Notes under the pieces: generated by a model
Told to the model about the DNA's origin: nothing
What the model saw: the letters and a program-made list of their open reading frames with translations, nothing else
Databases searched by the model: none
Made by a program: the position numbers and the translations under genes
NCBI GenBank assembly: GCA_009780345.1
Contig: WRAG01000010.1
Coordinates: forward strand, 251-64,250
From: Oscillospiraceae bacterium
GTDB taxonomy: Bacteria > Bacillota > Clostridia > Monoglobales > WRAG01
Reading direction: 5' to 3'
DNA length: 64,000 nucleotides
In this document: piece after piece, positions 1-48,600 of the stretch
Numbering within the stretch: position 1 is the first letter of the stretch
Layout: each line of letters opens with the position of its first letter

Positions 1-130
1 TAAAAATTTTTTTGTATAAATTGTTGACAAATAACAAAAAACTTGTTAAAATGAATCTGAATGTTTCTGTTTGTTAATAATATTGTAAATAATTAATAAT
101 TTATATACAACTAAAGTGGAGGGATTTTTT

Positions 131-30545: not shown

Positions 30546-31291
30546 TAGAACTTCAAAATATATCACAAGTTTTTGACAACGGAGTCGAGAGAAACCAGGT
30601 GTTAAAGTGTTTAAACCTAACCATCCCCGAGGGGCAATTTGTTACTGTCATAGGTGGAAACGGCGCAGGCAAAAGTACGCTTTTTAACATTATAAACGGC
30701 AATATACGCCCTACTTCGGGCTCGATATTTTTTGACGGCAAAGATATTCAGAGGAAAAGCCACAGCGCGCGTGCGGCAATGATTGCTCGTGTGTATCAAG
30801 ATCCTAATTTCGGGCTTTGTCCTGATTTGACAATCGCGGAAAACATGGCGTTGGCGAATTCTCGCGGCAAATGGCGCGGACTTCAATGGGCCATCCGCAA
30901 AAAAGATATTGCTTTTTTCAAGGAAAGGCTGGCGGAGTTCGATTTAGGGCTCGAGAAAATGCTTCGCAAAAAAGCATCGCTTTTTTCAGGCGGGCAGAGG
31001 CAGGTCGTGACGCTGCTTATGGCGACGCTGCAAAAACCGAGGTTGCTGCTTCTGGACGAACACACGGCGGCGCTTGACCCGAAGATTGCAAAGCAAGTCA
31101 TGTGTATTACAAAAAAGCTGGTTGATGAGCAAAAAATAACAACCATAATGATTTCGCATAATATGAGCGACGCGATTACATATGGCGACAGGCTTATCAT
31201 GCTTAACCGCGGTGAAATCATTTTGGACGTTTCGGGCGAGGAAAAACAAAACCTTACCCCTGCGGAATTGATAACGATGTTTGAATCATAA
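30542..31291 (+). CDS. ABC transporter ATP-binding protein (COG1101-like)
   Basis: Walker A GGNGAGKST, signature FSGGQRQVVTL, Walker B LLLLDEHTAALD. Confidence 0.85.
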   Translation: MIELQNISQVFDNGVERNQVLKCLNLTIPEGQFVTVIGGNGAGKSTLFNIINGNIRPTSGSIFFDGKDIQRKSHSARAAMIARVYQDPNFGLCPDLTIAENMALANSRGKWRGLQWAIRKKDIAFFKERLAEFDLGLEKMLRKKASLFSGGQRQVVTLLMATLQKPRLLLLDEHTAALDPKIAKQVMCITKKLVDEQKITTIMISHNMSDAITYGDRLIMLNRGEIILDVSGEEKQNLTPAELITMFES

Positions 31292-31312
31292 TAAATTTTA
31301 GTAGTATATATA

Positions 31313-31346
31313 AAAAGTGAACCTCACAAGAGGTTCACTTTTTTTG
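31313..31346. terminator. Bidirectional terminator between convergent operons
   Basis: aaaaagtgaacctc-acaa-gaggttcacttttt. Confidence 0.85.
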
Positions 31347-31369
31347 AGATAGGTTAAGTTTTTTCTATT

Positions 31370-32227
31370 TTAACTTACAAGCGGCTTAAACGCCCTCGCT
31401 TCCCACAGCATAAATCTCGCTTCCGCCCCTTCGAATCTCGCAGGAATAGGTTCATTTTCCACCCACAAGCCATCAAATCCGTTGGGTATTTCAACATCTC
31501 TGATATATACGTCAAGAAGCCGTCCGGTATCATCATATTTCGCGGCAATAAGAAATAAATCCTTGTCGCCTGTTGTATTTATCGTGTTAAACGATACTAT
31601 ATTTTCAACCGATACATTGAAGTTTGTTATACGAAACGGTGTTGCAATAATAACAGAACCGATTTCGCCGTTATCGCCGAGAAGATTGATAGCCAGTCGT
31701 TCTCTATTCGAATTGGCCGGCAATTCCGGATTGCGAACATTCGCGAAACTAATTCGTATTTCGTCAGTTTCTCCTAAAGCCGCTTCTTCCTCTGCCATAA
31801 AAGTATAGGTGATCAAGTTGAAGTTTTGTATCGTCATGTTATTGGTTCGCGCCCAAGCAACGAAAGCATAGGCCGGGCCAACTATCGGAGTTATTTCACC
31901 GGTCGATCGTGTAAATCCCGGAGGTCCTGTAAATATTCCTTGACTCAAAACGGCTGAATAAGCCGGGTCAAATGTTATATGAGTCAACACAAGACCTTCC
32001 GGAACATAAATACGTATCGGCATAGTCATAAATCCCGGATTATTTTCAAAACGAAGAGTTACGTCAAAAGCGTCGCCCCGAAAAACCCGCTCAGGCATGC
32101 CTGTGGCGATTATCCGCGCTTCATTCGTCGCCGTCGCTGTTTTATTATTCACCGAAAGCGGAATAAGAAAAACAAAAATAAGCGCAAGCGACATTATCCG
32201 CATTGACATGCGTATTTTAAAATTCAT
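31370..32227 (-). CDS. Secreted cohesin-like module protein with a C-terminal beta-sandwich tail
   Basis: Signal peptide. GDAFDVTLRFENNPGFMTMPIRIYVPEGLVL is paralogous to the third cohesin-like module of the 1958-aa protein. The tail ends ARFMLWEARAFKPLVS. Confidence 0.7.
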   Translation of the reverse strand: MNFKIRMSMRIMSLALIFVFLIPLSVNNKTATATNEARIIATGMPERVFRGDAFDVTLRFENNPGFMTMPIRIYVPEGLVLTHITFDPAYSAVLSQGIFTGPPGFTRSTGEITPIVGPAYAFVAWARTNNMTIQNFNLITYTFMAEEEAALGETDEIRISFANVRNPELPANSNRERLAINLLGDNGEIGSVIIATPFRITNFNVSVENIVSFNTINTTGDKDLFLIAAKYDDTGRLLDVYIRDVEIPNGFDGLWVENEPIPARFEGAEARFMLWEARAFKPLVS

Positions 32228-32249
32228 TTTGTGAACACATCCTTTTTAA

Positions 32250-33470
32250 TTATCTTTGCGCCAAAAATCTTGTAAATATAGCGGAAACTTCCGCTCTCGT
32301 TGCGGTTGAAAGCGGGTCAAACCTGCCATCGGGCCGTCCTCCGACTAAATCAGCGCCCTGTATCGCGCGAACCGCGTCAACTGCCCAATATGATATTTCA
32401 TCTTGGTCTATAAAGTTAGCAATATATCCCTGCGCAATTTCAATACCCATAATCTCAACATAACGGAACAGCATAACCACCATCTGTTCGCGGGTTATCG
32501 GCAAATCGGGGGCAAAATTATCGCCGCCTACTCCTTGAACAATTCCTGCGCCCGCCGCCCATTCAACCGCACCAAAATACCAAGCGGAATCTACGACATC
32601 AACAAATTTGGGCAAATTGTTAAATACGGAAGTATCAACACCTTCCAAATTCGCCAAAACTTGCGCGAACATGGCGCGAGTCATGCCTACTTGCGGACTA
32701 AACTGATTATACGCAGTACCTTGGAACAACGAATTCTCCCAAACCGTCCTTACATATTCATAATACCACGCCGTTTCGACAACATCGCCAAACGGAAGCG
32801 TCACAGCCTCATACGGCGACTCCGGATATTCCGGTTCGGGGTTAGGGGCCGGAGTTGGACCCGGCGTAGGTGGTGGAGTCGGCCCAGGTCCGGGACGCGG
32901 CGGTGGCGCAGAAATAGTATCATCACCATTATCGTCACCATTACCGTTGCCATTGTCATCATCTCGTAAAATATATACGCTACCTTGCGTTACCGAATAA
33001 CTGAGCTGATTTGAGTTATAATCAACCACCATACCAACCGTAACGTTGATAGTAGCTTCGCCCGCCGGAGCATTGTCCGGCACGCTAAATTCTACATTAA
33101 GTAAAACGCCTGTCGAAGTATCATTTTCTACGCCAATCCATATAACGTTAAAAGGATTTCGACTGTATGTGCTCTCATCAACTCCGACAAACATATGATA
33201 AGTCAACGCCGTTCCGGATGTTACCGAATTCACGCTATCAATTCTCAATCTATACGAGTCGTATCCAACACTTAATCTTAATCCCGCAATTCCCGGGTTG
33301 GCAACCAACATGATAGGAACGATTACGCTTTCGCCCGGAGCCGCCGAAAATTGTTCCACTTCTATTTCCACAGTATCGTTTGCGTAAACCGACGGTATAT
33401 AAAATAACAATAAAGCAACTACGCAAAGAAAGCACAGAGTAATTCTATGAAACCTCTTTAATTTTATCAT
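32250..33470 (-). CDS. SLH-anchored cohesin protein (anchoring-scaffoldin-like)
   Basis: Signal peptide. Cohesin-like VEIEVEQFSAAPGESVIVPIMLVANPGIAGLRLSVGYDSYRLRI. Linker PPPRPGPGPTPPPTPGPTPAPNPEPE. Three SLH repeats (FGDVVETAWY..MTRAM, FVDVVDSAWY..ITREQ, FIDQDEISYW..ATRAE). Confidence 0.8.
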   Translation of the reverse strand: MIKLKRFHRITLCFLCVVALLLFYIPSVYANDTVEIEVEQFSAAPGESVIVPIMLVANPGIAGLRLSVGYDSYRLRIDSVNSVTSGTALTYHMFVGVDESTYSRNPFNVIWIGVENDTSTGVLLNVEFSVPDNAPAGEATINVTVGMVVDYNSNQLSYSVTQGSVYILRDDDNGNGNGDDNGDDTISAPPPRPGPGPTPPPTPGPTPAPNPEPEYPESPYEAVTLPFGDVVETAWYYEYVRTVWENSLFQGTAYNQFSPQVGMTRAMFAQVLANLEGVDTSVFNNLPKFVDVVDSAWYFGAVEWAAGAGIVQGVGGDNFAPDLPITREQMVVMLFRYVEIMGIEIAQGYIANFIDQDEISYWAVDAVRAIQGADLVGGRPDGRFDPLSTATRAEVSAIFTRFLAQR

Positions 33471-33495
33471 GTCTATCTCCTCGTGGGTTTATCAT

Positions 33496-36400
33496 CTATA
33501 ATCTTAATTCATATGGGAATGCCTTCAAGATGATAACGTCAGTAACTATGCCGTCAATCATTTGCATAACAACCCAATCACGAACCGCGATTGCCGGAGC
33601 AGGGAAGTCAGGCCAGGAATCTAGTGATGTTGTTCTCAATCTCGCTCCGGCTGTTAACCATTGTTGATGCGGACGATTGATGTTTCCAAGATCACCGACT
33701 ATCAATTGCATTGAAGCAACTCCTTGACTCATATCAAGCACATAAACATTAGCGCCAGAACGAATGTTGTATCTCATGCTTGCAAAGTTCCAACGTTGAG
33801 CTTCAGTATTATGCCAATTGTGTCCCATGCCATCAGTAAATCTTGGTCCAACGGTTATAAATCCCGCTCCTGTTTGCACAACAGGACCCATAATAATTGA
33901 TTGACCTTCATCGAAATCAGTCCAAACGGAAACCTCGTTAGGTAAAGCTCCTAATTCCAATTCGAAGCTAGTTGCCAAATTTACTAATGTCGGCAATCTA
34001 TGTGTAAAATGAGACGTAGACGTATTATCTACACTAATGTTATCTAATTCAAACAATGCAGAAACTTCATAGATTTCATCTCTCTCATTCACACTATAGC
34101 GGAAAGCAGTACCTCTAAGCATGTTGTCAAAATGATGTGCCGTATTAACTGTTGATAACAAGTTCCTTCTTTCGCCGTTTTGAAAGAATTCTACACTCCT
34201 AACCCTTTCGTCGGAATCATTAATTGTCTGGGCTACAGAATTAAATACCGCCAGATGATATGCCGGGTCGGGCGGCTCAGCGCTACCAAAACCGGGGAAG
34301 ATATCAGCATTGACAGGATCGTGATCGAAAGCAACTATTACTTGAACCACGCCGGTTCTTTCATTTAAGTCAAACAGCTGAACTTGCTCAAGTATACGAG
34401 CGTGAAAAAGGAAATCGTCAACAGTTCTGACTCCTGACCTCGCGCTGTCAATTTCACCAAACTCATTCGTTTGAATATCAAATATAAGCGTATCATTGTT
34501 AACGTTTGCGCTTAGTCTGGGAGTAAGATAGTCAACAGTAGTGACTCTGTCGTTACGAACGTCAAACGCAAACGTTCTGCTAACATAAGCAGGTCCTACA
34601 GAAGAGAATTCTCTGCCGGTCCACCCATTTGATCTCGCAAATTCAACACTGGTGATTTGACCGCTAACATTAACGCTATATCTGATTAGCTTGTTTTCGA
34701 AGAAGCTTAACCCACCCGGTAGCGGAGCAAAATTTCCGGCTGCACCGCCGTCACCTCTGAATGAATCAACCCCAAACGGTGAATTTTCAATATTTACAAC
34801 CGGCGCAAATCTGCGAGTCGATACACTACCGTCTCTATGTAATATTTGAAGCAAGCCTCGTCGACTAAAACCATCATCACCGGTATCGGCCATCATAACA
34901 AACCCGTAATTTATAAGTTCAGCCGGCGCTTTAAAAGCGGCAATATTACCGAATTCGTCAAGAACGAACGTTCCTTCCGAGCCAACCCTCACTCTTGATG
35001 TATCGTAAGCTCCAACCGCAACATAGTACTCTGTTCCGTCAATCCAGAAAGTCGGACCGGGAAGAAGATTTCCTTGAGAGTCAACCCATTCAGACGGCTC
35101 CCACGAACGAGGTGAAGCAGACGTTATCGCAACTCTACCTTCAATAGTGTTCGTCAAAACACGAATATTGTATAAGAAATCGTCAACAATGTTAACCATG
35201 TTAACTTCTACAGCCAATACGTCACCCTCGTTAATATCTCCAAGTCCGATTCGGCGACCGTTTCGTGTAATCCTGTAAGAAACGTCTAAACGGCTCGTGT
35301 CAAGCTCGATGACAGATGGCAAAAGCCTAGAATTCACAGGATTTCTTGCAATAAGAACTCTAGCGTTTGTGTCAACTTCATCAACAACGAAAATTTGAGG
35401 AGAATTTACAATTATTAAATCATTCCATCCTGTTCCGTTAGTGTCAATAACAGTTATGGTTCCGTTTGATAGCGAATTGCCTAAGATTGTGCTTTGACCG
35501 TGTGTGAATATCTCATCATCCCATACAGTTCTGCCATTATATATAACGGTATAGTTATCGGCAAGGCTTAGCGTGGTAGAAACCCTTGAGCCGGCATTTC
35601 TAAAATACCTAATTCTATCATTTCCGCTCCAATCAAATTCAAACCTATCAAAATCAGCGATATTAAATCTAGTCGATACATTTCTGTTCGTTTCCGGAAC
35701 TATTGAAACGATTACGTCATCAATTTGCCCGTATTCTTCCACGATATAGAAAACCACACGTTGACCGATAAAATTAGCGGCGTTAGTGTTTCCAACACGG
35801 AACGCCACATTATTAAGCGTGAACGGATAAATCGTAGGCATGGCATATCTCGGGTTATCTGTTCCAAAGTTGTTGTAAATATTTAACCTAACCGTCTCAG
35901 GCGCCGTAGATTGGTTATTAATAATTTCAGGTCCAAAAAGATTAGTATATCTGTTAGCAACCACTCTCCCACTAAGTCTGATAGCATTGTCCGGAATAAT
36001 AATAGTGTCGGGAAAATCACTATAATTCATTTCAGCCTTAGTTATGTCATGTCCGACCAGGTATCTTTTAAGCCTAACCGCGTCGTCAAGGTCAGGTCTG
36101 CCCCTTAAGATAGATGCTTCGGTTACCATTGCGGCATTATGATTTATTTCTACGTCATGATCGGCAAGGTATTTCGCAAGCCATGAAACATCAAGAAGAT
36201 CAATGGTTCCATCACCGTCTATATCACCCGGAATAAAGTCGCGCAACAATATTCGTCCGTTAGTAATAGGAATATTCAATTCTTCCCCATCAGCATTTCG
36301 CGGAATACTGTTATAATCTCTAATCGCGAAGCTTGCTTCAACCGGATAAACGTTAAATACAGCCTCAGAATCAGTAGCAAAAGTTAGCCTAAGCAATACA

Positions 36401-39372
36401 GCGTCGCTTTCATAAAAATTATATACACGCACCCAGTTCGCGAAAAATTGCCCTGATATACTTGTTGTTTCTCCGGGTTGCGTATCTTCGGGACCGGTAA
36501 ATCCGCTAAATAGTTCATCATCCAATATATCATATCTTATCAAAGTCAACTCATCCGGGAATTGTACCCTAAGCGGCATACTCGCAAACCCGGGATTGCC
36601 GCTTATACTGATATCAACCGTTATATTATCTCCGCTATCGGCTCTTAATGAAGATACTGTAAGAGCTATCGGCGACGGTGGCGGCGCCGATACCGTAAAC
36701 CCGGCAAGCATAGTATGACTAACCGCTGTACCTTCATAATAGTCAAGCGCAGTCACTATAATATTGCCGCTATGATTGCCTGCCGGCAACCCTAATTCCG
36801 GTCGAATGGTGAAAGTCGCGCTCTCAAGTGGCAAAAGAGTCGTATTATTTAATCCTCTAACAACTTCCCATCCATCAGGCACGGCAGTTATTTCAAGATC
36901 AGTAACCCGCATGGTTCCATGATTAGTAACTGTAACAATTCTTTCAGCACGTTGAGCATATCCTTCTTCCACGGTTCCGAAATTCAGGTTCCCCGACATT
37001 ATTATTGACAATATCGAGCTCGACCCTCCTGCGGTAATAGTAAACGTATTCGCGCCCGCCGTTATCGGTTCAAACCCTGCAATATTAACGGTATAAATTC
37101 CTACCGGGAAGAAAGCTCTCGGCAATCCAATTGTGATATTGTTTCCGAGAACAGTAATTGTCGCATCTGCTGTCACATCCGTGCCTGTCGCGTTTGTGAC
37201 AGTAATGTCAGAAAGCATAACGCCATGGAGTGGTCCGCCGAATACGATATTAACATCTCTGTCGCGAGCGACGTTAGGAGTAGTAATTACGAATTGGTTA
37301 GCCTCCGCCGGAACGATAGTCAAATAAACCGGAATAGTTAGATTCGCCGGAATTACCCAAGTAGGAATATCAGTAGTTCCGATAGTTCCGCCTGGATTTA
37401 CAGGTCTGACAAATCCTACACGAGTTCTACCAATAGTAGACCAATTGCTAAATGTCGGCCATGTAACCCATTCAACATCAAGGTCAGTCCAACGCTCGCC
37501 TGAGAGATATATTCCCATATCAGGAATACGAAGTCTGTAAGCTATTTCTACAACATTACCTGCAATTTGAGTGCCCCAATTAATGATCGGTGAACCTACT
37601 AAACTAGTAAGTTCAAACGAATCCGGAGCAACGATTGATTGAACCGCTCTTTGCCCCGCAGGTGAAACAGTCAACACAGCGTGAACATTAATCGGATGAG
37701 AAAGACCGGGCACAACAGCTTGACCGGTAGCTTGAACCATGTCGCCTTCGTCTCCTAAATACAAAGTGCCGGATAAAATATGATTCCAAGTAATCGTAGC
37801 AATTTGATTGGTCAACGAACCTACGTTAACCATCGCCGTTGTCGGAAGATCAGTCATACCGTTAGCAAGAGCGTCAGCAATAGTATTAACAGTAACACCG
37901 TCAGCAGGAGGAAGTTCTCTTTGAAACGGTCCCGGCGCCGTAGTGATTGTTCCAAGACCGATATTGCCCGTAAGCGTAAATGTTCCCGCAGTCGCGTTAA
38001 CAACAGCTAAAGTCCAGTTGTTAGGAGCGGTTCCAAGCCCGGTGAACGCGCTTGGCACAAGGTCGATTCCCGCAAACGGAGAACCATTTGGAAGTGTAAC
38101 CGTCCCTGTAAGTGTTTGAGTCCTTTGATTCACGTTAAATCCTGTCCAAGCGATGTTAACATTGCCCTCGCCGGACGGGAATGAAGTCGGAAGTGTTGGA
38201 GCAGTTCCGCCAACAACAGTTGTCGCAGCGTTCAACATGTTAGTAGCCACCACAAGGTCAGCACCTCTAACACTATTTGAACGTTCGATATTTATTGTAA
38301 GATTCTGAGCTGTAATAGTCAAGTCGCCAAATATATAATGATACCAGTTTACATTTGTTGAAATCGGAGTAGCCCCCGGGTCAGACACTCGTAAAGTAAC
38401 AGTACCAAGGTTATCAATCGGTCTAACACCAGCCACATACAGAAGGTTTACGTCAACACCTCTAGTCGCCTCTCTCGGTGTCTGCGAACGTACAAACGCA
38501 GAACCTGTAGTTGGGTCATCTGTAAAACGGTTCAGAGTGACAAATTGTAAGTTTGCAGGAGGTGGATCAACTATAGAGTCAGCAGAAATGCGAGTCGGGT
38601 CCCAACCAAAACGCAACCTTCCACTGAATGACTCAAACTCTCCTGTAGTGCTAATAGTCAACTCAATATCAGTATGTCCGCCTTCGGGCACTAAAACCGT
38701 TAAAACGTTATTCGCAATACCCGCACCGGTGAAAGATAGCGTCGTCGCACCGCCTCCAATGACGCTCGTTGTACGCTCGATATTTAAAGTAAGATTTTGC
38801 GCTGCAACAGTCAAGAAATCGCCAAATTCACAGCCAAAATCATAATGATACCAGTTTATAGTTGTTGAAATCGGATTCGCCCCCGGGTCAGCTACTCGTA
38901 AAGTAACAGTACCAAGGTTATCAATCGGGCTATTACCATTAATATTCAAGAGTTGTAAGTCAACACCTCTGGTCGCCACTCTTGGAACCGCTGAACGCAC
39001 ACTCGCAATACCCGTCGTTGGATCGTCGGTAAAGCGGTTAGCACCCATAGACTGCAAGTTTGGAAAAGGCGGATTAACTATAGAGACAGCAGAAATGCGA
39101 GTCGGATCCCAACCAAAACGTAATCTTGCGCCAGCTGCCTCATACGCCCCGGTAGTGCTAATAGTCAACGCAATATCAGCATGTCCGCCTTCCGGCACTA
39201 AAACCGTTAAAACGTTGTTCACAATACCCGCACCGGTGAAAGAAAGCGTCGTCGCACCGCCTCCAAAACGAGTTTCAACGTCGTCAGGCGTAGCAACAGC
39301 CGTAAAACTAAATAACGCCAAAACCATAGATAAAATTATAACCGCCGCTAATCCTTTTTTAAAAAAGTTCAT
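33496..39372 (-). CDS. 1958-aa secreted protein: 2 tandem cohesin-like modules, Ig-like domains, a cohesin-like module plus dockerin-like module, and an ~850-aa C-terminal region of unknown fold
   Basis: Signal peptide MNFFKKGLAAVIILSMVLALFSFTAVA. Tandem 169-aa modules (GGGATTLSFTGAGI[VA]NNVLTVLVPEGGH..RLRFGWDPTRIS). Cohesin-like ITVDISISGNPGFASMPLRVQFPDELTL. Dockerin-like PGDIDGDGTIDLLDVSWLAKYL ... RPDLDDAVRLKRYLVG at about nt 36046-36234. Confidence 0.8.
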   Translation of the reverse strand: MNFFKKGLAAVIILSMVLALFSFTAVATPDDVETRFGGGATTLSFTGAGIVNNVLTVLVPEGGHADIALTISTTGAYEAAGARLRFGWDPTRISAVSIVNPPFPNLQSMGANRFTDDPTTGIASVRSAVPRVATRGVDLQLLNINGNSPIDNLGTVTLRVADPGANPISTTINWYHYDFGCEFGDFLTVAAQNLTLNIERTTSVIGGGATTLSFTGAGIANNVLTVLVPEGGHTDIELTISTTGEFESFSGRLRFGWDPTRISADSIVDPPPANLQFVTLNRFTDDPTTGSAFVRSQTPREATRGVDVNLLYVAGVRPIDNLGTVTLRVSDPGATPISTNVNWYHYIFGDLTITAQNLTINIERSNSVRGADLVVATNMLNAATTVVGGTAPTLPTSFPSGEGNVNIAWTGFNVNQRTQTLTGTVTLPNGSPFAGIDLVPSAFTGLGTAPNNWTLAVVNATAGTFTLTGNIGLGTITTAPGPFQRELPPADGVTVNTIADALANGMTDLPTTAMVNVGSLTNQIATITWNHILSGTLYLGDEGDMVQATGQAVVPGLSHPINVHAVLTVSPAGQRAVQSIVAPDSFELTSLVGSPIINWGTQIAGNVVEIAYRLRIPDMGIYLSGERWTDLDVEWVTWPTFSNWSTIGRTRVGFVRPVNPGGTIGTTDIPTWVIPANLTIPVYLTIVPAEANQFVITTPNVARDRDVNIVFGGPLHGVMLSDITVTNATGTDVTADATITVLGNNITIGLPRAFFPVGIYTVNIAGFEPITAGANTFTITAGGSSSILSIIMSGNLNFGTVEEGYAQRAERIVTVTNHGTMRVTDLEITAVPDGWEVVRGLNNTTLLPLESATFTIRPELGLPAGNHSGNIIVTALDYYEGTAVSHTMLAGFTVSAPPPSPIALTVSSLRADSGDNITVDISISGNPGFASMPLRVQFPDELTLIRYDILDDELFSGFTGPEDTQPGETTSISGQFFANWVRVYNFYESDAVLLRLTFATDSEAVFNVYPVEASFAIRDYNSIPRNADGEELNIPITNGRILLRDFIPGDIDGDGTIDLLDVSWLAKYLADHDVEINHNAAMVTEASILRGRPDLDDAVRLKRYLVGHDITKAEMNYSDFPDTIIIPDNAIRLSGRVVANRYTNLFGPEIINNQSTAPETVRLNIYNNFGTDNPRYAMPTIYPFTLNNVAFRVGNTNAANFIGQRVVFYIVEEYGQIDDVIVSIVPETNRNVSTRFNIADFDRFEFDWSGNDRIRYFRNAGSRVSTTLSLADNYTVIYNGRTVWDDEIFTHGQSTILGNSLSNGTITVIDTNGTGWNDLIIVNSPQIFVVDEVDTNARVLIARNPVNSRLLPSVIELDTSRLDVSYRITRNGRRIGLGDINEGDVLAVEVNMVNIVDDFLYNIRVLTNTIEGRVAITSASPRSWEPSEWVDSQGNLLPGPTFWIDGTEYYVAVGAYDTSRVRVGSEGTFVLDEFGNIAAFKAPAELINYGFVMMADTGDDGFSRRGLLQILHRDGSVSTRRFAPVVNIENSPFGVDSFRGDGGAAGNFAPLPGGLSFFENKLIRYSVNVSGQITSVEFARSNGWTGREFSSVGPAYVSRTFAFDVRNDRVTTVDYLTPRLSANVNNDTLIFDIQTNEFGEIDSARSGVRTVDDFLFHARILEQVQLFDLNERTGVVQVIVAFDHDPVNADIFPGFGSAEPPDPAYHLAVFNSVAQTINDSDERVRSVEFFQNGERRNLLSTVNTAHHFDNMLRGTAFRYSVNERDEIYEVSALFELDNISVDNTSTSHFTHRLPTLVNLATSFELELGALPNEVSVWTDFDEGQSIIMGPVVQTGAGFITVGPRFTDGMGHNWHNTEAQRWNFASMRYNIRSGANVYVLDMSQGVASMQLIVGDLGNINRPHQQWLTAGARLRTTSLDSWPDFPAPAIAVRDWVVMQMIDGIVTDVIILKAFPYELRL
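38278..39290 (-). repeat. Tandem 507-nt (169-aa) duplication encoding the two N-terminal cohesin-like modules
   Basis: Antisense shadow ORFs at 38537..38845 and 39095..39418 share the same peptide at a 507-nt offset. The two protein modules have near-identical N-terminal halves. Confidence 0.8.
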
Positions 39373-39632
39373 TATACTTCCTCCTTGCTTCTTTAACTTC
39401 GATAATCTCCTTAAATGACTTATCGAAATTTTTACACAAAATTTTTGCCCATATTATGGGTTATTATACAACATTTTCGACAAAATTGCAAGCTTTTTTT
39501 TAAATCGCCATTGATACATGTAAACACTTTTTCCGGTGATTCAAACATCACAGCAAAGGAAACTCCATAATTAAAAAGGTTGACTTTTTCAAAATTTTAG
39601 TATATTATAAACAATATAAGGAGGAATGTGCG

Positions 39633-42281
39633 ATGAAATTAAAAAAACTTCTTTGTTTGATACTTACTTTCACTATAATATTGGCGGTTATGCTGACAAT
39701 GGTAACGTTCGCCGCGCCCGCGCCGGGGGCGCAAGTGGTCGCAAGCGGCAGGCTCGACAATTGGACTGCCGAAGGCTCCATATTTCTAGAACATGGGGCG
39801 TTTGTAAGAGTGAATATGGTGGGTGGACAGCCCCACCCACCACGAAACTTACATTTCGTTGACGGTCGCGACGGTGGCGCGCAAAGAGAATCTTTTTTAC
39901 GATTTGAATTTGCCAATTACATTGATCGTATCCTCGCCGGCGATGAGCTTAGATTGCAACTAAATATTAACGAAGCGGTATGGCATAATCCCGCGGGCGC
40001 ATACATTCTTCCGCCGCACTTAGCTGAGTTTTGCTATATGACGATAGGTCCCAGTATCGTAAGAACAACAAGACCACCAAGTAACACTTCCATGAGCAAT
40101 GATCTCAGCCGATTGGCGGCAACATTTACTCCATTTTCGGCAGGCAGGATACTTACAAGCGATATGGGGCCCGCAGTTCGCGACTTTTTTCTTACTTATC
40201 CGAATGAGACGGGGATAACTTTAAGAATACAGTCGCTTTGCCGCGACCCGAGGCAAACAACCGACGGAACCGCCATTTTTTCATTCAACGGAATGTCGCG
40301 CTTGCCCGGCGAGCCGACATTAGTATTCACTAACACCGATATCGGCGCGCCGTGGAGATTATATGACGACGGCACTTTGGTGGTTGACGAAGGAACTATC
40401 AATCGACCAACCGGGTTTACAACACCGTGGAGTCAATGGCGTTTTGATATTAACAATGTTATCTTCACAGGTCCGATTGACGCCGAAGAATCTTCTTTAA
40501 ATTTCTTGTTTTTTTTCTTTTCGAATATGACAAACATCGAAGGATTGGATTATATCAATACCCGAAATATGCAGACTATGATAGGTTTATTTGAGCTTGC
40601 AAGCAGCTTAACAAGCCTTGATTTATCAAGTTGGGACACAAGTAATGTAACGGACATGAGCCGTATTTTTTCCGGCACGCATAGCCTAACTGATTTAAAC
40701 ATATCAGGTTGGGACACAAGCAACATGAAAAATATGTCTAGCATGTTCGGCGGCACGCAAAGTTTGACAAGCTTAGATCTTTCCCATTTTGACACAAGCA
40801 ATGTGACGAGTATGGGTAGTATGTTTTCGGGTGCGTCAAGCCTATCTAAACTTGATTTGTCAAACTTCAACACAAGCAATGTGATAAGTATGAGTGGAAT
40901 GTTTAACGGTGCAAGTAGTTTGACAAGCCTTGACCTCTCTCATTTTGATACAAGCAACGTTGAAGGTATGAGTATGATGTTTGCTAATACAACAGACCTA
41001 ACACGCTTAGATATTTCCGGCTTTGATACAAGAAACGTTAGGTACATGAACAATATGTTTTGGAATGCAAATTCTTTGCGCGAACTTACTTTGGGTGAGC
41101 ATTTTAGGTTTATGGTGATTGAAACGAGTTGGCCGCAACAAAATCCCGCTCTTCCACCTGTACCCGACAACGACTACTTCACAGGAGTTTGGCAGAATGT
41201 CGGCAACGGAACGGTCGGCAATCCGCTTGGCGAGTTTGAATTTACGTCCGACGAACTTATGGCGGCGCTTGATAGAAATAATCCTAATTCCGCAAACTAC
41301 GCGGGGCAAACTTGGGTTTGGCAGCCGACCGAGGAAAATCGCGTCGATTTCATTTTCGCAATCGAAGTGGAGGGAGAGCTTGACTTCGGCAGGCTTCCGG
41401 TCGGATATGCGCAACCGGCTGGGAGAACGGTTACAGTTACGAATGTGGGTGATCAATCTTTGAACCTGTTTGTGTCTTGGCCGCCGCCTCTTCCGGGAAC
41501 GTTTCCCCCTTGGCCGTGGAGCGGTGGTGCCACTCAGTCACTTGGTTGGGTAGCGCCGGGAGAAAGCGCGACTTTTACGGTCCGAGCTAACACAGGAATG
41601 TCGATAGGAGTTTATCCTCTTAGAATTAGCATACATCATAGAGAACCTTCAGTTACATTGCTTATGGCGACCATATACGCACGATTCGAGGTATACCAAC
41701 AGCAAAGTGGTGGCGGTGGTGGATTTGGAGGCGGCGGTGGCGGCGGAAGTTGGAACAACAATCGCCCAAGCGGAAATGTTTTCTCGTCGCCATCATCCGG
41801 CAACAATGATAATGCAAACAATAATGTTGCAGCACCTCAGACACAACAATTCACCGACGTTTCGCCGAACGACTGGTTTTTCGATTACGTTGAATCCGCG
41901 GTTGCGAGCGGCTTGCTGAACGGTGTTGGAAACGGCGAATTTGCGCCGAACGTGTCAACAACGAGAGCGATGTTTGTAACTGTTCTGTGGCGGCTTGCGG
42001 GAAGTCCGAACGGCTATAACGGCGGTAATTTCAGCGATGTTGCTGACGGTAATTGGTATAGCGAAGCAATTGCGTGGGCGGCGGCGAATGGAATCGTAAC
42101 AGGCGTTGGAAACGGATATTTTGCGCCGAATTTGAACATTACTCGCGAGCAAATGGGGTTGATTTTGTATCGTTATGTCGGAGATTTGGCAGATGAAATT
42201 ATGGACAGGAATTACGTTCCGCAGAACACAGCGACTCGCGCAGAAATGGCGGCAGTTATGTTGAGGCTGAGCGAAAGATAA
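39633..42281 (+). CDS. SLH-anchored surface protein: DNRLRE/CBM96-like domain, BspA-type (DUF285) leucine-rich repeats, Ig-like domain, Gly-rich linker and SLH repeats
   Basis: RBS AAGGAGG and a signal peptide. ESFLRFEFANY. About 7 LRR units of the type LTSLDLSHFDTSNVTSMGSMFSGASSL. LDFGRLPVGYAQPAGRTVTVTNVG matches LNFGTVEEGYAQRAERIVTVTNHG in the 1958-aa protein. Linker GGGGGFGGGGGGGS. SLH repeats FTDVSPNDWF..TTRAM and FSDVADGNWY..ITREQ. Confidence 0.8.
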   Translation: MKLKKLLCLILTFTIILAVMLTMVTFAAPAPGAQVVASGRLDNWTAEGSIFLEHGAFVRVNMVGGQPHPPRNLHFVDGRDGGAQRESFLRFEFANYIDRILAGDELRLQLNINEAVWHNPAGAYILPPHLAEFCYMTIGPSIVRTTRPPSNTSMSNDLSRLAATFTPFSAGRILTSDMGPAVRDFFLTYPNETGITLRIQSLCRDPRQTTDGTAIFSFNGMSRLPGEPTLVFTNTDIGAPWRLYDDGTLVVDEGTINRPTGFTTPWSQWRFDINNVIFTGPIDAEESSLNFLFFFFSNMTNIEGLDYINTRNMQTMIGLFELASSLTSLDLSSWDTSNVTDMSRIFSGTHSLTDLNISGWDTSNMKNMSSMFGGTQSLTSLDLSHFDTSNVTSMGSMFSGASSLSKLDLSNFNTSNVISMSGMFNGASSLTSLDLSHFDTSNVEGMSMMFANTTDLTRLDISGFDTRNVRYMNNMFWNANSLRELTLGEHFRFMVIETSWPQQNPALPPVPDNDYFTGVWQNVGNGTVGNPLGEFEFTSDELMAALDRNNPNSANYAGQTWVWQPTEENRVDFIFAIEVEGELDFGRLPVGYAQPAGRTVTVTNVGDQSLNLFVSWPPPLPGTFPPWPWSGGATQSLGWVAPGESATFTVRANTGMSIGVYPLRISIHHREPSVTLLMATIYARFEVYQQQSGGGGGFGGGGGGGSWNNNRPSGNVFSSPSSGNNDNANNNVAAPQTQQFTDVSPNDWFFDYVESAVASGLLNGVGNGEFAPNVSTTRAMFVTVLWRLAGSPNGYNGGNFSDVADGNWYSEAIAWAAANGIVTGVGNGYFAPNLNITREQMGLILYRYVGDLADEIMDRNYVPQNTATRAEMAAVMLRLSER

Positions 42282-42582: not shown

Positions 42583-45399
42583 GTGCTTAAAAAGCTAATA
42601 TCGACAATAATTGTAATAGTAATGTTTATATCGATTTTGCCTGCCCTCGCCATGCCTGACGTCAATGACCATTGGGCAAATGACGCAATTCAGCGTTGGT
42701 ATGACTTCGGCGTAGTCAGAGGTTACGACGACGGAACTTTCCGCCCCAATAACCTCATCACCCGCGCCGAATTCGCGACAATTATCAACCGCGTTTTAGA
42801 AAGCAACGCAACATCCGACGCAACGTTCCCCGACGTCGCCCAAAACGCTTGGTACGCAAGCGAAATACGGCAAGCGTACGCAACCGGCTTTATGCGCGGC
42901 GACGCGGACGGCACAATGCGCCCGAACGACAATGTTACCCGCGAGGAAGCGGCGGTTATGCTTGGCCGCGCCTTTAATGTGGCGGAAAATAGCGGAAACG
43001 AAAATCCTTTCGCCGACGCAGACGAAATTTCCGGCTGGGCAAGCTATCATGTCGACGGAATGAGAGCGGCAGGGTATATTACGGGCTATTACGACGGAAC
43101 TTTCCGCCCGCGGAACTATATTACCCGCGCGGAAACCGTGATTTTGATTGACCGAATCGCGTTAGAGTTTTATGAAGAAAATAATCGACCTACAACGCCC
43201 GCGCCGCCCATTATCGGCGGACCTTCGGGCGGCGGAAACTTTGGCGGCGGCGGTGGCAGACAACCGGGACCATCAGGACCTCCGATGCCGGGGCCGGGAC
43301 CGAGTCCTCAACCGTTCGTGTTCGAAATTCCAAGCGAAATCCGCGTGTCATCGCAAAGCCGCTTTTACCTTATAGATATAATCCAACTTTCCGACAACAC
43401 GATAGTAACATCTGAATTTTTGAATCATTCCGGCGAAGGTTCGCATATAAGTTTTGGCGGCGTGATTGACGAAATAGGCAAACAAATATTACTTCACGCC
43501 GGTGGGTGGAATATTGAACCGAGCAGCGAATTCACCCTTGAATTCACCGCAACCCGCGGAACCGAAACCTTGACACGTCAAATGACCGTAATTATCGAAG
43601 AATCAGAATGGTATTCTATTAATGCGAACAATATGCTTTGGGCGCGCACCCCGATAATACTTCCCGATATTACCGGCGATTATTGGATTAGCTATACGGT
43701 TTGGTATCGCGACGTAAGAAACGGCCGGATATTTGGTGGCGGTCGCGGGCGGAGCACTCTCCCCGCCGGCGAATTTGAAGTTATCGCAGGCGGCGTGATT
43801 CATAATTTCAATGGTTTCAGCGAAGAATTCAGCGAACTCGGCGGAATAATAGGATATGAAGACTCAACCTATGATATTGATTATTTGACCTCAATTATCT
43901 CTCCGAGACCGCCGCCGCCACCGCCGCCGCGTCCGTTTATTATGCCCGAGCACGATTTTGACTTAATCCCAAGCGTGCCGCCGCAAAACGTGATAATCAC
44001 GCAAGAGGACGTTAATAATTTCCACGAAATGGGAGATTATCATTGGGTGACAAAAGAACTACCCACAATCACCCTTGTGCCGCGCGCGCGAAGAACGTTC
44101 TCGCTTACAGGCATAATAATCGCACCAAGTAGCGTTACGGGAACGGCGAGTGTCACAGGAACGGCGTATGTGACCTTACAAAGCAGAATGGAAGATTTCT
44201 ATTTCGGACATAGGTACACCCGAACAATCGAAGTTCCGATAAACGACATACTCACGGAGTATAGGTTCGACAACGTTCCAATGGGCGTATATGATATAAT
44301 CGTTGACTTAAACCGAACCAATATTGCGCAAATCTCGACGGTTCTAAACCAAAACCGAACAGGTCACAACATCGTACTAATCGCGTCGGACAGAGAAATG
44401 GGGCGCGTTGCGGGAACCATAACCATCGACCGCGCCGTGGATTGGGATATGAGCGTATGGGTTAACATTTCCAGAGGTTATTCTAATTTTTGCCCTGAAT
44501 CAGGCGCGGGAAGCAGCTGGTCAGTCTCATATTGGGGGGACGGCTTTATTATCCCCGCAGGACAAACAAGCGTAGACTTCCTTTCCTCGCGACTGCCGAC
44601 CGGCGAATATGATATTCAGGTTTCTATAGCGAACACTTTAACCGATTATATTTCAGATGCCGTTCAAATAACCAACACTACCGTGCAAAAAGACTTCGAT
44701 TTCACCGTCGGACAGAGAATCACCGGAAGAGTTGAAAATTGGCAACGGTTTGCAGAACCATGGATGCCTAGTAATAATCCGAATAGAGTAATAGTAAGCC
44801 TTGTCCATCCATACACGCTAACTTCAAGATCGATGACGATCGCTCCGTTCCCTCGTCCGCCGTCGGGTGGTGGCACGTGGCCTTGGCCGTCGCCAAGCGG
44901 AAATTTCGGATTTCACGGTCTTGAAAGCGGAACATATGAAGTCAGCGTTGTATTGGAACGGTGGACTTCCGGAAGTTTTCAAACAATTGTGCTCGCCAGA
45001 GAAGAAATCATTATCACCGATTCCGACATTTCGGGCGTAAACTTCGACCTTGCCGACGTTAATCTTTCTTACGAAATCGAGCGTATCGAATTTGAGGGCG
45101 TAGAACTGTCGCAAGATCCGAACAACCCGACGATTTTGCCGTTCCCTAATACTGTGCAAATTGTAGGTAACACCATTTTCGCACATAGGCAGGTTAGTAT
45201 ATATAGGTATATTAATGGCGTACATCAAGGTATATTAAGAGATAGATTTGGAAGCGACAGCACAATAAACATTCCAATGTGGTGGGGAAATGATGAACCG
45301 ATTTCGTTTCAAATTGTCGTTCGCAATTTTGACGGCACATTCCTTGCCGAAAGCGCAACATACTATGTTATTTTGAGTTATAATGGGCATAGCGTGTAG
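42583..45399 (+). CDS. 938-aa surface protein with three N-terminal SLH repeats, Pro/Gly linkers and beta-sandwich-like C-terminal domains. Its last codons and stop come from MITE copy 3.
   Basis: RBS AAGGAG with GTG start. Signal peptide. SLH repeats (DVNDHWANDAI..ITRAE, FPDVAQNAWY..VTREE, FADADEISGW..ITRAE). Linkers GGGRQPGPSGPPMPGPGPSP and RPPPPPPPRP. The final codons aat ggg cat agc gtg tag lie inside the repeat. Confidence 0.8.
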   Translation: MLKKLISTIIVIVMFISILPALAMPDVNDHWANDAIQRWYDFGVVRGYDDGTFRPNNLITRAEFATIINRVLESNATSDATFPDVAQNAWYASEIRQAYATGFMRGDADGTMRPNDNVTREEAAVMLGRAFNVAENSGNENPFADADEISGWASYHVDGMRAAGYITGYYDGTFRPRNYITRAETVILIDRIALEFYEENNRPTTPAPPIIGGPSGGGNFGGGGGRQPGPSGPPMPGPGPSPQPFVFEIPSEIRVSSQSRFYLIDIIQLSDNTIVTSEFLNHSGEGSHISFGGVIDEIGKQILLHAGGWNIEPSSEFTLEFTATRGTETLTRQMTVIIEESEWYSINANNMLWARTPIILPDITGDYWISYTVWYRDVRNGRIFGGGRGRSTLPAGEFEVIAGGVIHNFNGFSEEFSELGGIIGYEDSTYDIDYLTSIISPRPPPPPPPRPFIMPEHDFDLIPSVPPQNVIITQEDVNNFHEMGDYHWVTKELPTITLVPRARRTFSLTGIIIAPSSVTGTASVTGTAYVTLQSRMEDFYFGHRYTRTIEVPINDILTEYRFDNVPMGVYDIIVDLNRTNIAQISTVLNQNRTGHNIVLIASDREMGRVAGTITIDRAVDWDMSVWVNISRGYSNFCPESGAGSSWSVSYWGDGFIIPAGQTSVDFLSSRLPTGEYDIQVSIANTLTDYISDAVQITNTTVQKDFDFTVGQRITGRVENWQRFAEPWMPSNNPNRVIVSLVHPYTLTSRSMTIAPFPRPPSGGGTWPWPSPSGNFGFHGLESGTYEVSVVLERWTSGSFQTIVLAREEIIITDSDISGVNFDLADVNLSYEIERIEFEGVELSQDPNNPTILPFPNTVQIVGNTIFAHRQVSIYRYINGVHQGILRDRFGSDSTINIPMWWGNDEPISFQIVVRNFDGTFLAESATYYVILSYNGHSV

Positions 45400-45690: not shown

Positions 45691-48600
45691 CTAGATAATC
45701 ACATCTTCCGCTCTCGCGTTCGGCAATTGCAACATTGCCCAGTTGCGCGCGGGGGCTTGGGGTGAGGAATTAGACGCAATCTGCATCGCCCAATAGAACC
45801 AAGCGCTTGTGTTCGCGTTATCTATCCAAGTTTTCATGTTCGCCGTATCAATATCGGTTGCCGTACGACTTAGCACACGGTTAACTATTGTCGCGAACTC
45901 TGCTCTTGTGATATTTGCGTCCGGATTAAAGTTTCCGTATTGATCACCCTGTATCCAACCGATTTGTGCCGCTAGGTTAATATTATTTCTCGCCCAACTG
46001 TCGGAAATATAAGGGAACATATCTGTTGTGCCACGATATTGCGCTTCGTCGTGTAAAAACCGTGTCATAACCGTGACAACTTCCGCCCGTGTAATTGGCA
46101 GATTCGGTCTGAAAGTGCCATCCGGAAAGCCTGTCATTATTCCCTTATGATTCGCCGTCGATATTGCATTGCTAAACCAAGCTTCGCCATTGTTCGGCAC
46201 ATCAGAGAACGGGTTTTCAAGCGTCCAGTAAGCGGCTCTCGTTTCATCGCTTACAATCCGTAAGAGAATGCTCGCCACTTCAGCGCGGGTAATAACATCG
46301 TTCGGCGCGATGTGGTTATTTCCTTCTCCGATAAGGTAGGAATAGTGAATTTCTGTCAAAGTAACATCCTGCCTAAATCCCGGGTCTTGAATTTCCGGTT
46401 CCCGATTTCCAGAATCTATAAATATCGGAGGTCTAAATACCGGATCGTTAAATCCCGGATTTTGATTAGCGGTCCAATGCGCGTATAGGGTGTGATCGCT
46501 TGTTTGTGTCACCAAACTTGATGCAAGTACACGCGTTCCGCCGTTTGCGTTAGTGAACCATCCCAAGAAGGTATGCCCTGCTCTGGTTGGCGTTGTGATT
46601 ACGTTAAACGCGCTTTGATATGTGCCGCCAACGGTAACTGACGCGGTTTGTGTTGCGGGCGCGCCGCCGTTTGCGTCGAATGTCACCGTAATAGTCGGCG
46701 GTGGCGGCGGCAGTTCAGGCGCCCATTGCGCGTAAAGAGTAGTATCTATCGATGGAACATTGCTCAAATCGGTAATTTGTGTCCCGCCCGTCTGCGCGTC
46801 AAACCAGCCTTGGAACACAAAACCCGTCTGCGTCGGCTCTGTCACCGAAGCGAGGATAGACGCGTAACTGCTACCTACCACGTTCCCGCTCACAACCAGT
46901 GGCGTCGGCGTTCCGCCGTTCCCGTCAAAGGTAATCGTCACCGTTGGAAGCGGCGCCCATTGCGCGTAAAGCGTTTGATCCGCCGTCGCCGTTACTATAT
47001 CGGCAGGCTGCACCTGCGTTCCGCCAATGATTTGCGTGAACCAACCTACAAAGTCGCTGTCTGCCATAATCGGAGTTGTAACAGCGGCGAATGGTGCTTC
47101 ATAGGTGTTACCGCTTATCGCTGGCTCTTCCTGCATGGCGGGCGTTGCTCCCAGCGAGTCAAAGATGATATTAATCTGAAGCGGTGCCCATTGCGCGTAA
47201 AGCGTTGTGTTTGTTGCCGGAATTATGTCCGCGTCTGCAATCTTGACGCCTCCTGTCGGCGCGTCAAACCAACCGAGGAACGTGTAAAATTCTTGCGTAG
47301 GCTCTGTAACTGAAGCAAGCGTAACGGCATAAGTGCCGCCGATAATTTTGCCGGATACGACTTGAATTGCTGGTGTTCCGCCGTTCGCGTCAAAGGTTAT
47401 CGTAACTGTCGGGTCTGCAATCCAATGCGCGTAAAGCGTTTGATCTGCTGTTGCTGTTACGATCGTTGTGTCGAGAATTTGCACGCCGCTCGTATCTCCG
47501 TTAGGCGTGGTAAACCAGCCGGCAAAAATATAGCCGAATTGTGTTGGTGTTGCGACTTGCGACAAAGCACTTGCGTATGTGCCTGTCACTTGAACCGGTG
47601 TTACTGTCTGCGTTGCAGGCGTGCCCCCCTGTGCGTCAAAGGTGACGGTGATAGTGGGAACCGGCGCCCACTGCGCGTAAAGCGTCGTATCCGCCGACGG
47701 AACAGAGCTTGAATCGGTAATCTGCGTGCCGCCCGTCTGTGCGTCAAACCAGCCTTGGAACACAAAATCGGTTTGCGTCGGTTCGGAGACCGAAGCGAGG
47801 ATAGGCGCATAGCTGTTGTTAGGCGCGTTTCCGCTCACAACCTGCGTCGTGGGATCGCCACCGTTCGCGTCAAAGGTGATAGTGACCGTCGGATCGGCAA
47901 TCCAGCGCGCGTAAAGCGTTTGATCCGCCGTCGCGGTAACCGTCGTCGTGTCGAGAATCTGCACAGCGCCCAATGTTCCGCTCGGCCCGGTAAACCAGCC
48001 GTTGAAAACGTAACCCGCGAGCGACGGATTCGCGATTTCGCCAAACGCCGCCGCGTATGTGCCGCCGACTGTAACCGTTGCCGTCTGCCCGTCGGGCGCG
48101 CCGCCCTGCGCGTCGAAAGTGACATTAATTGTCGGTTCGGGAGTCCACCACGCGTAAACGTAAACCGTTGTAGCATACGGAGGCACCAAGTACCCCGGGC
48201 TAACTGTGCTTCCGCCCATACCTTGCGGTTGGTCGTGCCAACCATTAAAGATATACCCCGCCAAAGTCGGCGTTGTAATTGCGTTAAGAGCAGAGGCGTA
48301 GGTTGAAAGAGGAATCTGACCGCCCACGGTCTGTGTCGCGGGGCTGCCGCCTTGCGCGTCAAATATTATCGTAACAGTAACTGAAACCCAGTGTGCGTAA
48401 AGGATTTGGTCGGTTGTCGCCGTCACAACTGTGGTCGGAAGAATCTGAACGCCGCTCGTATCTCCGTCCGGGGTTGTGAACCAGCCACTAAATGCGTAAC
48501 CCATTTTCGACGGAACTTGGACTTGGGACAGCGCGGGCCCGTAGAGAGTTCCGGTTTCCAATATTTGCTGTTGCCCGTCGGGCGTGCCGCCTTGCGCGTT

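Follow-up and report, generated by a model that had tools for sequence, protein, structure and literature searches.

In cellulosomes the standard connector is the cohesin-dockerin pair, which has also found wide use as an orthogonal part in synthetic biology. Anchoring scaffoldins that combine a cohesin with S-layer homology (SLH) repeats tether dockerin proteins to the cell wall. Described systems that come closest to the locus reported here include the following. In the amylosome of Ruminococcus bromii the large secreted protein Amy4/Sca1 carries a cohesin followed by a C-terminal dockerin (PMC4611034; PMC12663171), and this dockerin binds the cell-wall anchor Sca2 (PMC4611034). In Ruminococcus flavefaciens ScaH and the group-2 dockerins dock on the cell-anchoring cohesin ScaE, the group-2 dockerins doing so with a single calcium loop; dockerins of this species generally have a single binding mode, and one-loop dockerins that function are documented as well (PMC12270676). 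In Cellulosilyticum lentocellum adjacent genes for a single-cohesin and a single-dockerin protein give rise to a heterodimer (PMC13487519). The locus described here lies in a 64-kb stretch of contig WRAG01000010.1 of an uncultured Oscillospiraceae bacterium (the window, meaning the whole stretch of DNA that was analysed) and contains the gene for a secreted protein of 1958 amino acids (aa), in which a cohesin is directly followed by an internal dockerin with a degenerate second calcium loop, and, downstream of it, the gene for a 406-aa protein with a cohesin and three SLH repeats. From sequence comparisons we consider it probable that the dockerin docks on the cohesin of this 406-aa anchor and thereby restores, non-covalently, a wall attachment of the type 'SLH + body'.

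Cohesin and dockerin modules and their calcium loops

The gene and the segments of its product on which the argument turns are the following.

33496..39372, minus strand: gene for the 1958-aa secreted protein (open reading frame list and translation)
36241..36666, minus strand: cohesin module, aa 903-1044 (AlphaFold2 beta-sandwich, Foldseek and profile matches)
36226..36240, minus strand: five-residue connector DFIPG, joining the last cohesin strand to the first calcium loop
36049..36234, minus strand: dockerin module, aa 1047-1108 (hidden Markov model, profile, AlphaFold2 and Foldseek)
36190..36225, minus strand: canonical calcium-binding loop 1, DIDGDGTIDLLD, aa 1050-1061
36082..36129, minus strand: degenerate second loop, MVTEASILRGRPDLDD, aa 1082-1097, with a 4-residue insertion
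33499..35991, minus strand: C-terminal domain of ~830 aa, aa 1128-1958, homologous to the non-SLH part of ~1000-aa SLH proteins

Residue n of the protein corresponds to window position 39372-3(n-1), and window positions 36040-36680 to about aa 898-1111. From its N-terminus the protein consists of a signal peptide, two 170-aa repeats, an immunoglobulin (Ig)-like region, the cohesin, the dockerin and an S-layer-type C-terminal domain. An identical protein is entered at NCBI as 'MAG hypothetical protein FWE04_03590' of an Oscillospiraceae bacterium, on an 82-kb contig.

By predicted fold and family membership, aa 903-1044 are confirmed as a cohesin and aa 1047-1108 as a type I dockerin. In the whole protein Pfam Dockerin_1 (PF00404) reaches 21.4 bits, under its cutoff of 22.9 and over the first repeat only, and Pfam Cohesin (PF00963) 16.1 bits, under its cutoff of 24.1; in the isolated 222-aa fragment Dockerin_1 rises to 25.6 bits, over the cutoff yet matched at profile positions 1-36 of 57 alone, and Cohesin to 19.8 bits, still under it. 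NCBIfam gave a single 12-bit match, to the dockerin end of CelK. Word-indexed homologue searches with a 234-aa fragment and with the full protein returned nothing beyond the protein itself, so that an exhaustive HMMER search was needed, and family profiles were needed for comparison with solved structures, phmmer of the fragment against the PDB giving weak dockerin matches only (E 0.04-1). A scan of genome contigs with the whole protein yielded 33 pattern matches and no relatives. The exhaustive search, with aa 780-1958 as query against 1.84 billion representatives, gave 1871 matches at E<=1e-3; among the best 150, over 80 span the entire two-domain unit (aa ~897-1111). A profile of 25 two-domain units retrieved 240 proteins at E<=1e-5, the majority already annotated with Pfam Cohesin and Dockerin_1; among 25 sampled relatives 19 have an individual Pfam match at E<=0.01 to Dockerin_1 and 18 to Cohesin. 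Against a hidden Markov model (HMM) built from canonical relatives the dockerin module scores 43.2 bits over positions 1-58. The family profiles match solved dockerins over both repeats, with a best E of 1.6e-18, and the solved cohesins ScaE, CipA Coh9, ScaC and OlpA at E 4e-7 to 5e-5.

Structure prediction points the same way. The AlphaFold2 (AF2) model of aa 897-1118 has a predicted local distance difference test score (pLDDT) of 93 and a predicted template modelling score (pTM) of 0.80, and the best 50 Foldseek matches of this two-domain model in the PDB are cohesins without exception (E down to 6e-11), with type I cohesins at ranks 1-25 and target-normalised TM scores of 0.73-0.80; the predicted cohesin module resembles the solved nine-stranded beta jelly-roll cohesins. 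The dockerin modelled alone (pLDDT 86.7) is predicted to adopt the dockerin fold with helices 1 and 3 antiparallel, and its best 26 Foldseek matches in the PDB superimpose on it with root mean square deviations of 1.4-3.2 A over 60-77 columns, the single-dockerin chains among them with TM scores of 0.65-0.84. Both models were built on alignments of relatives, many of them with canonical dockerins, and the geometry of the degenerate loop in them is a prediction. The sequence-only reading had claimed a cohesin and a dockerin module here and had placed the dockerin in the interior of the protein; profile matches, AF2 and Foldseek support the former and the 840 residues that still follow the dockerin segment the latter. 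The opposite case, a segment that does not fold as a dockerin, was looked at through AF2 and Foldseek and did not materialise, the best 26 matches of the dockerin model all being dockerins.

The two calcium loops differ. Loop 1 retains every calcium ligand and is the sole loop of the type D-x-[DN]-x-[DNS]-G in all six frames of the window. In a dockerin with two calcium loops each loop is of 12 residues and bears D/N at positions 1, 3 and 5, closing with D/E at position 12, a pattern present in loop 1 and absent from loop 2. Aligned to the HMM of canonical relatives, the second loop reads M-V-T-E-A-(SILR insert)-G-R-P-D-L-D-D, with M, T and A at positions 1, 3 and 5, and AF2 predicts a short helix (EASILR) at its site; the segment ILRGRPDLDDAVRLKRYL covers aa 1088-1105 (window 36058-36111). 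Judged by its sequence the module is an atypical one-loop variant and not a canonical member of Dockerin_1. With no D/N at the three positions and an insertion besides, the degeneracy of the second loop that had been claimed at the outset is borne out.

A loop census of 168 full-length family dockerins, aligned to the same HMM, found canonical D/N ligands in both loops in 117, in loop 1 only in 24, in loop 2 only in 14 and in neither loop in 13. The insertion with a V-T-x-x-S-(I/V) motif is common to about 15 nearest relatives, among them P0011 (51% identical), P0015, P0014, P0023, P0021, P0029, P0037, P0065 and P0106, and further P0030, P0032, P0043, P0105 and P0141; a D-V-N-G-D-G second loop is confined to more distant relatives. 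Since about 15 nearest relatives carry the same V-T-x-x-S-I insertion, the alignment identifies the degenerate second loop as a conserved clade character and not as local decay. An alignment with orthologues had been proposed as a check on the degenerate loop, and it found the conserved insertion and no normal second loop in the nearest relatives. The clade is mostly missed by whole-protein Pfam scans and in stored Pfam annotation. A second sub-clade has a degenerate first loop of the form (S/N)-V-T-(D/N)-S-G (P0019, P0024, P0026, P0038 and P0042, also P0013, P0028 and P0041), and in the first five of these the second loop is off the strict D/N pattern as well, indicating that calcium ligands were lost more than once in the cassette family.

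A single binding mode, which had also been proposed, is plausible for this dockerin on sequence grounds. It is suggested by the asymmetry of the helices rather than by the loss of the loop: the segments of helix 1 and helix 3 share 7 of 16 positions in the present dockerin and 6 in P0011, the family median being 13; at positions 10/11 one repeat has L-L and the other L-D; and the two-fold symmetry of the cohesin-contacting helices is lacking. In sister proteins that have lost this loop too, 9-13 of the 16 helix positions are still identical, and loop loss alone therefore does not imply a single mode.

As judged from its relatives, the cohesin-dockerin pair is a common cassette of fixed spacing, normally C-terminal, on large surface proteins of Clostridia. 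Its end lies <=45 aa from the C-terminus in 55 of the 61 other full dyads, the invariant glycines G143 and G153 lie 10 residues apart in 50 of 62 dyads, and the cassette cohesin is conserved across the family. The constant spacing together with the pTM suggests that the cassette is a rigid unit. Its passengers resemble adhesins or are non-cellulolytic in other ways (LRR, DUF285, Flg_new, Big_2, MACPF, DUF4430). One relative, P0014 (L007 2558-9433), has 2291 aa with a MACPF pore-forming domain and a degenerate-loop cassette at its end, followed by a cohesin-SLH anchor gene, and a second cassette-bearing open reading frame lies upstream of the P0014 gene in L007.

The neighbouring anchor and the proposed tether

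Two further genes follow on the same strand.

32250..33470, minus strand: gene for the 406-aa anchor, 25 bp downstream; signal peptide, cohesin, Pro-rich linker and three SLH repeats
32976-33371, minus strand: anchor cohesin, aa 34-165 (Pfam Cohesin 40.1 bits, over the cutoff)
about 32271-32798, minus strand: the three anchor SLH repeats (Pfam SLH 99.9 bits, over the cutoff)
31370..32227, minus strand: gene for a 285-aa secreted protein (p285), 22 bp further downstream; stand-alone cohesin-like module, aa 47-189, and a C-terminal domain of ~95 aa

With its signal peptide, cohesin and SLH triad the 406-aa protein has the composition of an SLH anchoring scaffoldin, and its SLH region matches the SLH structure of Bacillus anthracis Sap at E 1.5e-5. 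The module of p285, a protein without a Pfam match, is paralogous to the internal cohesin of the 1958-aa protein (32% identity over 143 aa), and p285 may be a free or 'shuttle' cohesin by analogy with R. flavefaciens ScaG. The gaps of 25 and 22 bp are the sole grounds for regarding the three genes as an operon; a promoter and terminator scan of 31000-39800 counted 8 terminators against 8.4 expected.

The pairing of cassette and anchor genes is conserved, a cohesin-SLH anchor standing next to a cassette gene in six loci of the clade, the present one included. In the other five an anchor homologue lies directly downstream of the gene for P0011 (L002), P0015 (L006), P0014 (L007), P0023 (L008/9) and P0065 (L010/11), and in the last it is followed by a homologue of the third gene, p285. 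In their cohesin the anchor homologues show 38-52% identity, and SLH repeats are present wherever the contig extends far enough. No anchor gene adjoins two distant cassettes that have canonical dockerins and lie on long contigs.

How did the cassette come to lie in the interior of the protein? Its C-terminal domain, aa 1128-1958 (query positions 349-1179), is 63% identical to aa 225-1057 of P0002, named 'S-layer homology domain-containing protein', in which this part directly follows the SLH region. P0002 and about 30 others are proteins of 1000-1100 aa with a signal peptide and an SLH triad in the first ~225 residues, and the cassette occupies the position of the P0002 SLH triad. These alignments indicate that the internal cassette arose by fusion of an X-Coh-Doc protein to an S-layer-type protein body. 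P0002 comes from the same sample as the 1958-aa protein, with accessions in neighbouring NCBI blocks (MCL2837532 vs MCL2838137/8), and is probably a paralogue in the same genome; its gene (L003 10001-13174, sample ERZ27257297) lies on another contig between CTP synthase and TsaD among housekeeping genes, a location that would suit the gene of a main S-layer protein. The same arrangement was reached independently in P0104, where a canonical Coh-Doc cassette follows the signal peptide and is itself followed by a C-terminal domain of this kind. In the P0104 locus (L013, 3-701 and 720-3473) the preceding gene codes for a cohesin protein without SLH repeats, whose last ~70 aa resemble the C-terminal domain of the 285-aa protein by eye, with no significant alignment there. 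Misassembly as the source of the internal position is ruled out by a second assembly (L016), which has the identical junction and agrees with the present one at 100% identity over aa 482-1958 and the two genes downstream. No Pfam family matches aa 1128-1958, and no characterised homologue of this domain was found.

Given the folds predicted for the modules, their family membership, a degenerate loop kept throughout the clade, the junction at which one domain replaced another and a conserved order of genes, we infer each binding step, the calcium stoichiometry and the binding mode as follows. The 1958-aa protein would be secreted, and its dockerin would bind one Ca2+ in loop 1, with a calcium-independent helical insert in place of loop 2. 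This dockerin would settle, probably in a single orientation, on the cohesin that the 406-aa cohesin-SLH protein carries, and docking would re-create the arrangement of SLH and body without a covalent link, holding the protein on the cell wall. The cassette cohesin would be left as a free socket on the surface that could take another dockerin protein, possibly another copy of the same cassette. The anchor cohesin is the most probable ligand because the gene pairing is conserved and the window contains no other dockerin. Precedents for such a partner are the docking of Amy4 on Sca2 (PMC4611034), that of the group-2 dockerins on ScaE (PMC12270676) and the heterodimer of C. lentocellum (PMC13487519).

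Several observations weigh against the proposed tether. Outside the window the genome could encode further dockerins with the same anchor as ligand. Docking on the anchor leaves the retention of both the cassette cohesin and the stand-alone p285 cohesin unexplained, and the pTM of the two-domain model shows a defined cis contact between cohesin and dockerin. In a further clade locus (L012) the gene directly downstream of the cassette gene (P0037) is a different one, coding for another cassette-type cohesin, albeit on a short contig. The seven loci behind the synteny may not be independent, as several stem from related samples and at least one from the very same sample. An S-layer role of the C-terminal domain, finally, would follow solely from the SLH architecture of its homologues.

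It could further be imagined that the protein is a 'split' S-layer subunit, with a lattice-forming body that lost its covalent SLH repeats and is re-attached to the wall through a one-calcium, single-orientation dockerin on a dedicated cohesin-SLH partner, the neighbouring cohesins forming a regular array of sockets in the S-layer. We put this forward tentatively, as an idea with more against it than for it. If true, it would represent a natural modular surface-display lattice in a non-cellulolytic context, and the V-T-x-x-S-I dockerins with their syntenic anchor cohesins would constitute a new orthogonal specificity pair.

Possible other partners for the dockerin

The sequence-only reading had named the adjacent cohesin as the partner, bound either in cis or in a head-to-tail polymer. 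As stated this is unsupported, as the pair is a common cassette, and the conserved cohesin-SLH neighbour and the origin by fusion point elsewhere. Of the two forms the polymer fares better. The dockerin might bind the cassette cohesin of another molecule and build chains or sheets, instead of or besides binding the anchor, an explanation that we consider unlikely. The dockerin of Amy4/Sca1 binds its own cohesin as well as Sca2 (PMC4611034), and recombinant Amy4 aggregates unless the dockerin is deleted (PMC12663171); this parallel is, however, drawn from architecture. Loci L007 and L010 have several cassette proteins and a single anchor, and the conservation of the cassette cohesin likewise fits self-assembly. 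On the other hand, the cassette and anchor cohesins are just 24-26% identical and a shared specificity is not a given, and with polymerisation alone nothing in the window would serve as ligand for the conserved cohesin of the downstream anchor.

It is decidedly unlikely, in our judgement, that the cassette cohesin is a built-in structural partner of the dockerin. In this case it would act in the manner of an X module, its packing in cis stabilising the one-calcium-site dockerin and perhaps adding contacts to the anchor. X-dockerin dyads are the usual attachment of primary scaffoldins to SLH or sortase anchors, and the very short, fixed connector, the pTM of the two-domain model and the high pLDDT that the dockerin keeps within the dyad are all consistent with such a role. 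The same fixed spacing is found, however, in relatives with two canonical loops, which are the majority in the census (117 of 168), indicating that the cohesin does not specifically compensate for the loss of a loop. Moreover, paralogous cohesins also occur alone, as in p285, and in multi-cohesin proteins, and the equivalent cohesin of Amy4 does bind dockerins (PMC4611034). For the variant in which the dockerin sits on the binding face of the cohesin and the pair is auto-inhibited in cis there is no support.

That the dockerin is a relic which lost its function after the fusion, the S-layer-type domain now providing attachment and the odd second loop reflecting decay, is highly improbable: whole-protein Pfam scores under threshold and the divergence of the two dockerin helices would agree with it, but about 15 relatives with a C-terminal, unfused cassette have the degenerate loop with V-T-x-x-S-I, so that the loop change predates the fusion, loop 1 keeps all its calcium ligands, the AF2 model is confident throughout and the anchor gene is retained next door.

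Surroundings of the locus and comparison with known systems

The region around the locus looks like an island of cell-surface proteins. The window is rich in genes for very large surface proteins (116-4234, 22639-28344, 39633-42281, 42583-45399 and 45691-51930); among these giant neighbours there are Flg_new/InlB-B repeats (<=16 copies) with C-terminal SLH repeats, a DUF285/LRR protein with SLH repeats and a protein with N-terminal SLH repeats. There are no glycoside hydrolases in the window, and the context is non-cellulosomal. Within the 1958-aa protein itself two tandem repeats of ~170 aa (window 38248-39264, minus strand, aa 37-375) are 73-75% identical to each other; no homologues of them were detected, and that they are additional cohesins is ruled out by an hhalign probability of 0.2%. 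Just ahead of the cohesin lies a module of ~100 aa (aa 780-896, window 36685-37035, minus strand), which in the exhaustive search recurs 11-17 times in the giant proteins P0009, P0012 and P0016 (1600-3100 aa) and is probably an Ig-like spacer domain.

What does the locus add? Adaptor scaffoldins, single-mode dockerins, single-loop dockerins and cohesin-dockerin self-assembly are already documented, and the current understanding is not overturned. The locus adds a coherent clade of dockerins in which the second calcium loop is replaced by a conserved helical insert. The one-to-one pairing of dockerin and cohesin-SLH genes offers ready-made candidate specificity pairs. The cassette in place of an SLH triad, here and in P0104 as a second case, suggests that S-layer-like wall attachment can pass to a cohesin-dockerin bridge.

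Amy4/Sca1 of R. bromii belongs to the same family, Oscillospiraceae, and likewise carries plug and socket on one polypeptide. It is, however, a GH13 amylase with a terminal cassette and a sortase-linked anchor, and no loss of a calcium loop is reported for it, whereas the 1958-aa protein has no enzyme domain, an internal cassette and a replaced second loop. The monovalent adaptor scaffoldins ScaC and ScaH of R. flavefaciens consist, like the cassette, of one cohesin and one dockerin, and the group-2 dockerins of this species are, like the cassette dockerin, equipped with one calcium loop and are still functional (PMC12270676). Of a group-2 dockerin only a single repeat is left, and one cohesin can accommodate two copies; the cassette dockerin in contrast keeps both helices, and only its loop is replaced by an insert. 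The present system further differs from that of R. flavefaciens in its SLH-based anchor, in the ~1000-aa N-terminal passenger of repeats and Ig-like modules and in the S-layer-type domain after the cassette.

The SLH-cohesin anchors OlpA, OlpC, SdbA and OlpB of Clostridium thermocellum have the same architecture as the 406-aa protein, a cohesin followed by an SLH triad, and the cohesins of OlpA and OlpC are among the structural neighbours of the cassette cohesin in Foldseek. In contrast to these anchors, the one described here stands in a non-cellulosomal context and is genetically paired one-to-one with its presumed ligand. The cassette also resembles the type II/III X-dockerin dyads. There a dockerin that binds a cell-surface anchor is directly preceded by a beta-sandwich module, and the two form a rigid unit; here, however, both predicted fold and profile make the preceding module itself a cohesin. 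The ClcC/ClcD pair of C. lentocellum, a minimal system of adjacent single-cohesin and single-dockerin genes, supports drawing conclusions on a binding partner from adjacency (PMC13487519), although it is built around a cellulase and has neither an SLH anchor nor a cohesin-dockerin cassette.

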